Origin: Escherichia coli
GTDB taxonomy: Bacteria > Pseudomonadota > Gammaproteobacteria > Enterobacterales > Enterobacteriaceae
NCBI RefSeq assembly: GCF_024298765.1
Contig: NZ_CP101210.1
Length of the DNA stretch: 64,000 nucleotides
Direction: 5' to 3' (one strand)
This document shows, in pieces, positions 57,079-57,733 of the stretch. The notes under the pieces are model-generated. The model ran no database searches. It worked only from the letters and a program-made list of their open reading frames with translations, and was not told where the DNA came from. How positions within the stretch are numbered: the first letter of the stretch is position 1; the number at the start of each line of letters is the position of its first letter. Made by a program: the position numbers and the translations under genes.

Positions 57079-57345
57079 ATGGACATTAACAACAAAGCCC
57101 GCATTCATTGGGCATGCCGCCGTGGTATGCGCGAACTCGATATTTCAATCATGCCGTTTTTCGAACATGAGTACGACAGCTTAAGCGATGACGAAAAACG
57201 CATCTTTATTCGTCTGCTGGAATGTGACGATCCGGACCTGTTTAACTGGCTGATGAATCACGGTAAACCAGCCGATGCAGAACTGGAAATGATGGTCCGA
57301 CTCATCCAGACACGGAACCGGGAACGTGGTCCTGTGGCAATCTGA
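57079..57345 (+). CDS. sdhE: FAD assembly factor SdhE (YgfY/CptB, 88 aa)
   Basis: ORF 57079..57345; translation [21 protein letters not shown]. Confidence 0.85.
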
Positions 57346-57733
57346 TTTGCGCGTCTCCTGGCGCGCACAGTGGCTTTCCTTGCTGATTCATGGGCTGGTT
57401 GCCGCTGTTATTTTACTCATGCCCTGGCCGCTCAGTTACACCCCGTTATGGATGGTGTTACTTTCGCTGGTGGTGTTTGATTGCGTTCGCAGCCAGCGGC
57501 GCATTAATGCTCGCCAGGGGGAAATTCGCTTGTTGATGGACGGGCGTTTGCGTTGGCAAGGGCAGGAGTGGAGCATCGTCAAAGCGCCGTGGATGATTAA
57601 GAGCGGCATGATGCTGCGTTTACGTTCTGACAGCGGAAAACGGCAACATTTATGGCTGGCAGCTGACAGCATGGACGAAGCCGAATGGCGGGATTTACGG
57701 CGGATATTGTTACAACAAGAGACGCAAAGATAA
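57326..57733 (+). CDS. ygfX: Inner-membrane protein YgfX (CptA, 135 aa)
   Basis: ORF 57326..57733; overlaps the sdhE 3' end by 20 nt; two predicted TM helices. Confidence 0.8.

Follow-up and report, generated by a model that had tools for sequence, protein, structure and literature searches.

Two descriptions of the sdhE-ygfX gene pair have been given in the literature. In the first, SdhE belongs together with Sdh5 and SDHAF2 to a family of flavinylation factors (Pfam PF03937), and an E. coli deletion mutant of ygfY, as sdhE is also called, was viable, had drastically reduced succinate dehydrogenase activity and scarcely grew on succinate (PMC5293155). In the second, the pair is the type IV toxin-antitoxin (TA) system CptB/CptA, an operon of 2 genes where the antitoxin gene comes first and the toxin is bound to the membrane. 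This name rests on the overexpression of YgfX in E. coli (Masuda 2012, as cited in PMC8621075, PMC3985639, and PMC10790755). According to these citing papers, overexpression blocked growth, changed the cells to a lemon-like shape and inhibited the polymerization of FtsZ and MreB, and the effects were counteracted by YgfY. A similar CptBA-like system has been claimed for A. baumannii (PMC8132199), and in a TA survey of 950 genomes the prevalence of CptA_toxin was at least 80% in every sequence type examined (PMC10790755).

Studies of two other genera have given different results. The Fineran group detected no TA phenotype in Serratia, as their work (McNeil 2013) is reported in PMC3985639, and an interaction between SdhE and YgfX was reported for this genus (PMC3985639; PMC5042078). 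The Shewanella pair was found to fail the TA criteria and to lack toxicity, and no interaction between YgfX and YgfY was seen in a bacterial two-hybrid assay (PMC8621075). The homologous genes are co-transcribed in both Serratia (PMC5042078) and Shewanella (PMC8621075). Here, we compare these descriptions with the sdhE-ygfX locus in a stretch of 64,000 nucleotides from an E. coli genome, which we refer to as the window.

Gene content and integrity of the locus

The gene order in the window was trhA, ygfZ (divergent), sdhE-ygfX, fldB (convergent), xerD, dsbC, and recJ, as in K-12 MG1655. The following features were identified at and around the gene pair:

56827 to 57078, no strand: divergent intergenic region between ygfZ (minus strand) and sdhE, 252 bp, presumably containing both promoters
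56922 to 56931, no strand: insertion of 10 bp relative to K-12, TGATATGCTT, located upstream of both genes at a distance of about 95 nt from the ygfZ start and about 150 nt from that of sdhE
57064 to 57078, plus strand: putative Shine-Dalgarno region for sdhE (AGGAAG, separated from the ATG by 3 nt), identified by its match to the consensus
57079 to 57345, plus strand: sdhE (ygfY/cptB), ATG start, 88 amino acids, FAD assembly factor (ORF listing, Pfam PF03937, NCBIfam NF008130)
57326 to 57345, plus strand: dual-coding overlap of sdhE and ygfX, 20 nt, GTGGTCCTGTGGCAATCTGA, probable site of translational coupling
57326 to 57733, plus strand: ygfX (cptA), GTG start, 135 amino acids, predicted inner-membrane protein with a two-helix hairpin and a cytoplasmic PH-like domain
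57736 to 57766, no strand: hairpin TGACGGC-N16-GCCGTCA with a 7-bp stem, occupying the larger part of the 39 bp that separate the convergent ygfX and fldB stop codons

An earlier sequence-only reading of the window had proposed that an 88-amino-acid SdhE ORF overlaps a YgfX ORF by 20 nt in a different frame, and that the arrangement is intact. The ORF listing and the sequence confirmed these coordinates exactly and placed ygfX in frame +1 with respect to sdhE. Neither a frameshift nor a truncation, which the reading had named as signs to the contrary, was observed in the alignment to K-12. The SdhE protein was identical to K-12 b2897 at 88 of 88 positions and the YgfX protein to b2896 at 134 of 135 positions, the exception being residue 103, which is a serine here and a glycine in K-12. 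This difference is caused by an A in place of the K-12 G at position 57632 of the window, and the residue is placed by the AF2 model in the loop between the last 2 strands. The alignment contained no indels in either gene; there was a single synonymous substitution in sdhE, whereas the 10 nucleotide substitutions in ygfX consisted of 9 synonymous and 1 nonsynonymous change, which indicates that ygfX is under purifying selection. The sequence of the 20-nt overlap was identical to that of K-12. The S103 variant of YgfX corresponds to WP_000244781.1, an accession that has been annotated in at least 2 other strains.

The 946-bp interval from ygfZ to fldB was matched in 5,425 of 5,426 complete E. 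coli genomes, with 95% to 100% identity and a single copy in each, and the genes at the matched places were annotated as "sdhE: FAD assembly factor SdhE" and "ygfX: protein YgfX". Strain FDAARGOS_497 was 100% identical to the window over the interval, and the RefSeq annotations of this strain and of K-12 MG1655 agreed with the window in the relative positions of both CDSs and in the 20-nt overlap. The record of 1 of the 5,425 matching places carried a plasmid label, and the sdhE-ygfX locus was lacking from 1 of the 5,426 complete genomes. The genes, their neighbors and the overlap are thus all shared with K-12 sdhE (ygfY, b2897) and ygfX (b2896), and the locus also differs from its K-12 counterpart by the additional 10 bp at positions 56922 to 56931 between ygfZ and sdhE, an allele that was present in 157 of the 5,426 genomes. 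We conclude that the window contains the ordinary, intact and already known sdhE-ygfX operon of E. coli.

A promoter scan of the region ahead of sdhE gave no strong match to the sigma-70 consensus. The hairpin at positions 57736 to 57766 was not called in the terminator scan and is without a T tract; the RNA fold of the segment 57726 to 57785 had a free energy of -18 kcal/mol. The hairpin may serve as a transcription stop shared by ygfX and fldB. Two terminator-like matches inside ygfX were at chance level and were discarded. The only Rfam match in the segment 55700 to 58500, to RT-4, was located inside ygfZ and was rejected, with a score of 25 bits against a gathering threshold of 73.5. The mechanical listing of ORFs also contained a minus-strand ORF of 153 amino acids with a TTG start at positions 57436 to 57897, antisense to ygfX and the 3' end of fldB. 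Further downstream, at positions 61931 to 61945 on the plus strand, we noted an exact copy of GGGGGTATCTTTGAC, the site at which prfB, the gene for release factor 2, undergoes its programmed +1 frameshift; this fits with the presence of prfB downstream of recJ in the window.

Families and predicted folds of SdhE and YgfX

The sdhE product matched the Pfam family Sdh5 (PF03937) with an E-value of 5e-26 and 90.8 bits (cutoff 27), and the SdhE equivalog NF008130 in NCBIfam with 198.4 bits (cutoff 120) over residues 1 to 88 of 88. We found no difference from the described SdhE, Sdh5, and SDHAF2 flavinylation factors: the HMM match covered the full length, and the RGxxE motif was present as R15-G16-M17-R18-E19. 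Residues W11, C13, R14, R15, G16, M17, E19, L20, and D21 were invariant in 43 homologs, a set that had been retrieved with a pattern in which the motif is included. Searches against solved structures identified the chains 1X6I and 1X6J (YgfY) as well as 6C12 and 6B58 ("FAD assembly factor SdhE"), with E-values from 8e-59 to 2e-51. The last 2 represent the SdhA-SdhE and the FrdA-SdhE complex, respectively, and the solved YgfY and SdhE chains, those in the complexes included, are equal in sequence to the SdhE of the window. In an AF2 model of SdhE linked to YgfX, the SdhE half consisted of 5 helices with pLDDT values above 93. This small, helical protein binds 2 flavoprotein subunits, SdhA and FrdA, and promotes the covalent attachment of FAD, a function that has been shown for the identical protein.

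The ygfX product matched the Pfam family Cpta_toxin (PF07254) over residues 2 to 131 with an E-value of 1e-49 and 168.5 bits (cutoff 27.3), and no other Pfam family, including PH and bPH, was matched even at an E-value of 10. A sequence search for solved structural relatives was negative. A phmmer search of 1.84 billion representative sequences returned 135 relatives, which indicates that the YgfX family is small. Hydropathy analysis revealed 2 hydrophobic stretches, at about residues 16 to 34 and 39 to 57, and the AF2 model placed helices at residues 12 to 31 and 36 to 62 with pLDDT values of about 95, in agreement with the 2 transmembrane segments that the sequence-only reading had assigned to YgfX. 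The identification of the genes as sdhE and ygfX also proved correct, as judged from the Pfam and NCBIfam families and the RefSeq names, and the role attributed to SdhE in the flavinylation of succinate dehydrogenase agrees with the literature (PMC8621075; PMC3985639).

The AF2 model of YgfX, which was based on an alignment of 47 diverse homologs, had a pLDDT of 95.8 and a pTM of 0.79. Apart from the helices of the putative membrane hairpin, it contained a strand at residues 2 to 8, 6 strands within residues 65 to 112 and a helix at residues 118 to 134. With moderate confidence, we interpret the modelled fold as a PH-like β-sandwich, in which the first strand is split off from the others by the inserted membrane hairpin. 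This separation distinguishes the model from eukaryotic PH and Ran-binding domains; the identity to PH-like domains was 7% to 20%, with no sequence similarity, and a Foldseek search with the model gave no significant hits. The C-terminal 78 residues contained 16 lysines and arginines versus 10 aspartates and glutamates, which is consistent with a cytoplasmic location. According to the model, YgfX would insert into the membrane as a two-helix hairpin with both termini in the cytoplasm, and the N-terminal strand would combine with the C-terminal 75 residues into a single PH-like domain, located at the surface of the membrane.

The dual-coding junction

The overlap at positions 57326 to 57345 encodes the C-terminus of SdhE, (R)GPVAI followed by the stop codon, and in the +1 frame the N-terminus of YgfX, (M)VLWQS. 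Read in the frame of ygfX, the sequence has a stop codon at position 57290 and no start codon between this and the GTG at position 57326, and the only alternative start is an in-frame TTG at position 57347. If translation were to begin at this TTG, 2 nt past the stop codon of sdhE, the 2 genes would abut and the overlap would be an annotation artefact. The presence of the TTG codon and the poor Shine-Dalgarno match ahead of the GTG, where we found only a weakly similar sequence, would be in line with such a start. However, YgfX would then lose the 7 residues MVLWQSD, which include the tryptophan W4 that is conserved in the family and which form the strand at residues 2 to 8 of the modelled domain, with a pLDDT of about 95. 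Furthermore, the GTG and the codons next to it were retained across the Enterobacterales, and distant homologs (L008, L009) begin with an ATG inside sdhE. A start at the TTG codon is for these reasons very improbable. The annotated GTG start was accepted on the basis of the upstream stop codon, the conservation in the family of W4 and the LRxS motif (consensus MxxWxxxLRxS), and the conservation of the junction. If the model is correct, the overlapping GTG would also be structurally needed, since the first strand of YgfX is encoded within the overlap.

The junction, cGTGgtcctgtggcaatcTGA, was conserved at nearly every base in Escherichia, Citrobacter, Enterobacter, Superficieibacter, Mangrovibacter, Yersinia, Photorhabdus, and Providencia. 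To follow it more broadly, loci for sdhE were collected from species-representative genomes with a degenerate DNA pattern for W.CRRGM.ELD. At least 120 loci were listed, mostly from Gammaproteobacteria and some from Betaproteobacteria. An overlap of exactly 20 nt with a GTG start was found at 18 loci among those listed, most of which were from Enterobacterales, along with Shewanella xiamenensis and a few unclassified MAGs. We also traced 5 diverse relatives of YgfX, with sequence identities of 57%, 37%, 31%, 26%, and 21%, to their contigs; for a sixth, no entry was retrieved. All 5 genes were located directly downstream of a gene for an Sdh5 protein, with overlaps of 20, 20, 26, 14, and 19 nt according to the gene caller. 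The start-codon heuristic was noisy for the distant YgfX homologs, and we relied on the 20-nt figure for the Enterobacterales and on the overlaps from the gene caller.

The combination of a nearly invariant dual-coding junction, a weak Shine-Dalgarno sequence and a GTG start codon suggests that ygfX is translationally coupled to sdhE and that a low ratio of YgfX to SdhE is fixed by the anatomy of the junction. Ribosomes that terminate on sdhE would most likely re-initiate or be handed on to ygfX, and the output of YgfX would in this manner be tied to that of SdhE, at a lower level.

Predicted proteins of 166 to 217 amino acids that combined the Sdh5 and Cpta_toxin domains were identified in metagenome assemblies (P0003, P0004, P0006, P0007, P0009, P0012, P0013, and P0021). 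All were singletons except P0006, which had 2 member sequences, and most differed in their junctions, which were mostly deletions of 1 nt in or near the 20-nt overlap. The existence of such predicted two-domain proteins of 207 to 217 amino acids in metagenome assemblies could be taken to mean that SdhE and YgfX are made as a single fusion protein by programmed +1 frameshifting within the overlap. We consider this to be extremely improbable, since thousands of cluster members were separate genes and the overlap contained no slippery or Shine-Dalgarno-stimulated site of the prfB kind. In addition, the points of fusion differed among the proteins: RERG|LWQ in P0006, GPV|QSD in P0007 and P0009, GPVAI|DL in P0013, and a position in the middle of the gene in P0004. 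Because of these scattered junctions, a programmed frameshift was rejected, and the fusions resemble sporadic mutants or errors of reading or assembly.

Phyletic distribution and the toxin-antitoxin label

At the 109 listed loci with at least 420 nt of downstream sequence, a YgfX-like ORF was located immediately downstream of sdhE on the same strand in 63 cases after one HMM round and in 84 cases after 3 rounds, although some of the third-round matches may be false positives. No YgfX-like ORF was found elsewhere in the locus at any of these 109. The listed loci that contained sdhE without a detectable ygfX included those of 5 Nitrosomonas, Hydrogenophilus, 2 Haemophilus, and a Succinivibrionaceae MAG, as well as the reduced symbionts Photodesmus, Enterovibrio escacola, and Pantoea sp. 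Nvir. The reverse situation, ygfX retained without sdhE, was not seen among the loci examined. The loci of symbionts, Haemophilus, and Nitrosomonas with no YgfX-like ORF following were L031, L047, L049, L055, L085, L092, L102, L104, L118, and L125. At the last of these, from the Pantoea sp. Nvir symbiont, the old junction cGTGgtcccgtggc was still recognizable and was followed by stop codons.

The product of ygfZ is an Fe-S/folate-related protein. Its gene was located divergently upstream of sdhE at 58 of the 90 listed gammaproteobacterial loci with enough upstream sequence, in 43 cases at a distance within 600 nt; a ygfZ-like gene was likewise located divergently upstream in 4 of the 5 traced relatives. 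The linkage of ygfZ and sdhE predates the Enterobacterales. A convergent fldB gene downstream was seen at 14 of the 97 listed loci with enough downstream sequence.

The sequence-only reading had mentioned that the pair has been described as a TA-like module in E. coli. This description does exist, as the type IV system CptB/CptA (PMC8621075, PMC3985639), but the TA reading of the genes has been disputed, so that the published label is real but contested. If it is taken literally, YgfX is a membrane-bound toxin that blocks the polymerization of FtsZ and MreB, and SdhE has a second role as the antitoxin, which is kept in excess by the overlap. The locus is the same as that described for E. coli, and like a TA module it consists of 2 adjacent genes that overlap on the same strand, with the antitoxin gene first. 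The overexpression phenotypes (Masuda 2012, as cited in PMC8621075, PMC3985639, and PMC10790755), the CptBA-like report from A. baumannii (PMC8132199) and the Pfam family name Cpta_toxin also speak for this explanation.

However, the accessory, patchy or mobile distribution that is typical of TA loci, albeit not strictly defining, was not observed; instead, the pair was a core, single-copy and syntenic element in 5,425 of 5,426 E. coli genomes, and it has been inherited together with ygfZ across the Gammaproteobacteria. The putative antitoxin has a separate role in enzyme assembly, it persists without the putative toxin in several lineages that have lost ygfX, and E. coli remains viable when ygfY is deleted (PMC5293155). 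No TA phenotype was obtained in Shewanella (PMC8621075) or, as reported in PMC3985639, in Serratia. The direct binding of SdhE to YgfX that was reported for Serratia is moreover at odds with the definition of type IV systems, in which the partners do not interact (PMC3985639); in Shewanella, no interaction was seen (PMC8621075). PADLOC recorded no defense-system match at the locus. On balance, we consider it unlikely that the pair is a genuine TA module.

The single-copy, syntenic and vertical inheritance, the one-way loss of ygfX, the viability of the E. coli sdhE mutant, and the negative TA tests in 2 genera fit with a housekeeping operon, and the same features fit poorly with a selfish or stress-responsive TA cassette. 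It is therefore likely that sdhE-ygfX is a core, vertically inherited two-gene operon, and that YgfX is a dispensable accessory of SdhE rather than a toxin restrained by it. From the strict gene linkage, the reported binding of SdhE and YgfX in Serratia and the distribution across genomes, we infer that YgfX most likely acts as a dispensable, membrane-anchored partner of SdhE. The growth arrest and the lemon-shaped cells of E. coli that overproduce YgfX would then be an overexpression effect. The phenotypes reported by Masuda 2012, the similar claim for A. baumannii (PMC8132199) and the negative two-hybrid assay in Shewanella (PMC8621075) speak against this reading. In the paired-alignment AF2 prediction of SdhE-(GGGGS)6-YgfX, both halves had pLDDT values above 95, with a pTM of 0.56 and no confident docking of the 2 proteins.

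A more specific and rather speculative possibility is that YgfX is not a toxin but a membrane-anchored, PH-like adaptor, which is made in fixed proportion to SdhE through the overlap and which, at the inner membrane, holds SdhE or lets it go. If so, YgfX would tune the delivery of flavinylated SdhA and FrdA to their membrane anchors, and the toxicity upon overproduction would be a side effect.

The value of the locus for discovery is small, since it is known from textbooks on E. coli and is present here in its normal form and intact; the modestly new points are limited to the modelling of YgfX with a PH-like fold and to how deeply the dual-coding junction is conserved. The results nevertheless call for caution with the label "Cpta_toxin", which spreads through TA surveys even though the pair is distributed like a housekeeping operon. 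The prediction of a PH-like domain whose first strand lies inside the overlap with sdhE, and the conservation of the 20-nt junction across the Enterobacterales, may be of help in finding the function of YgfX.
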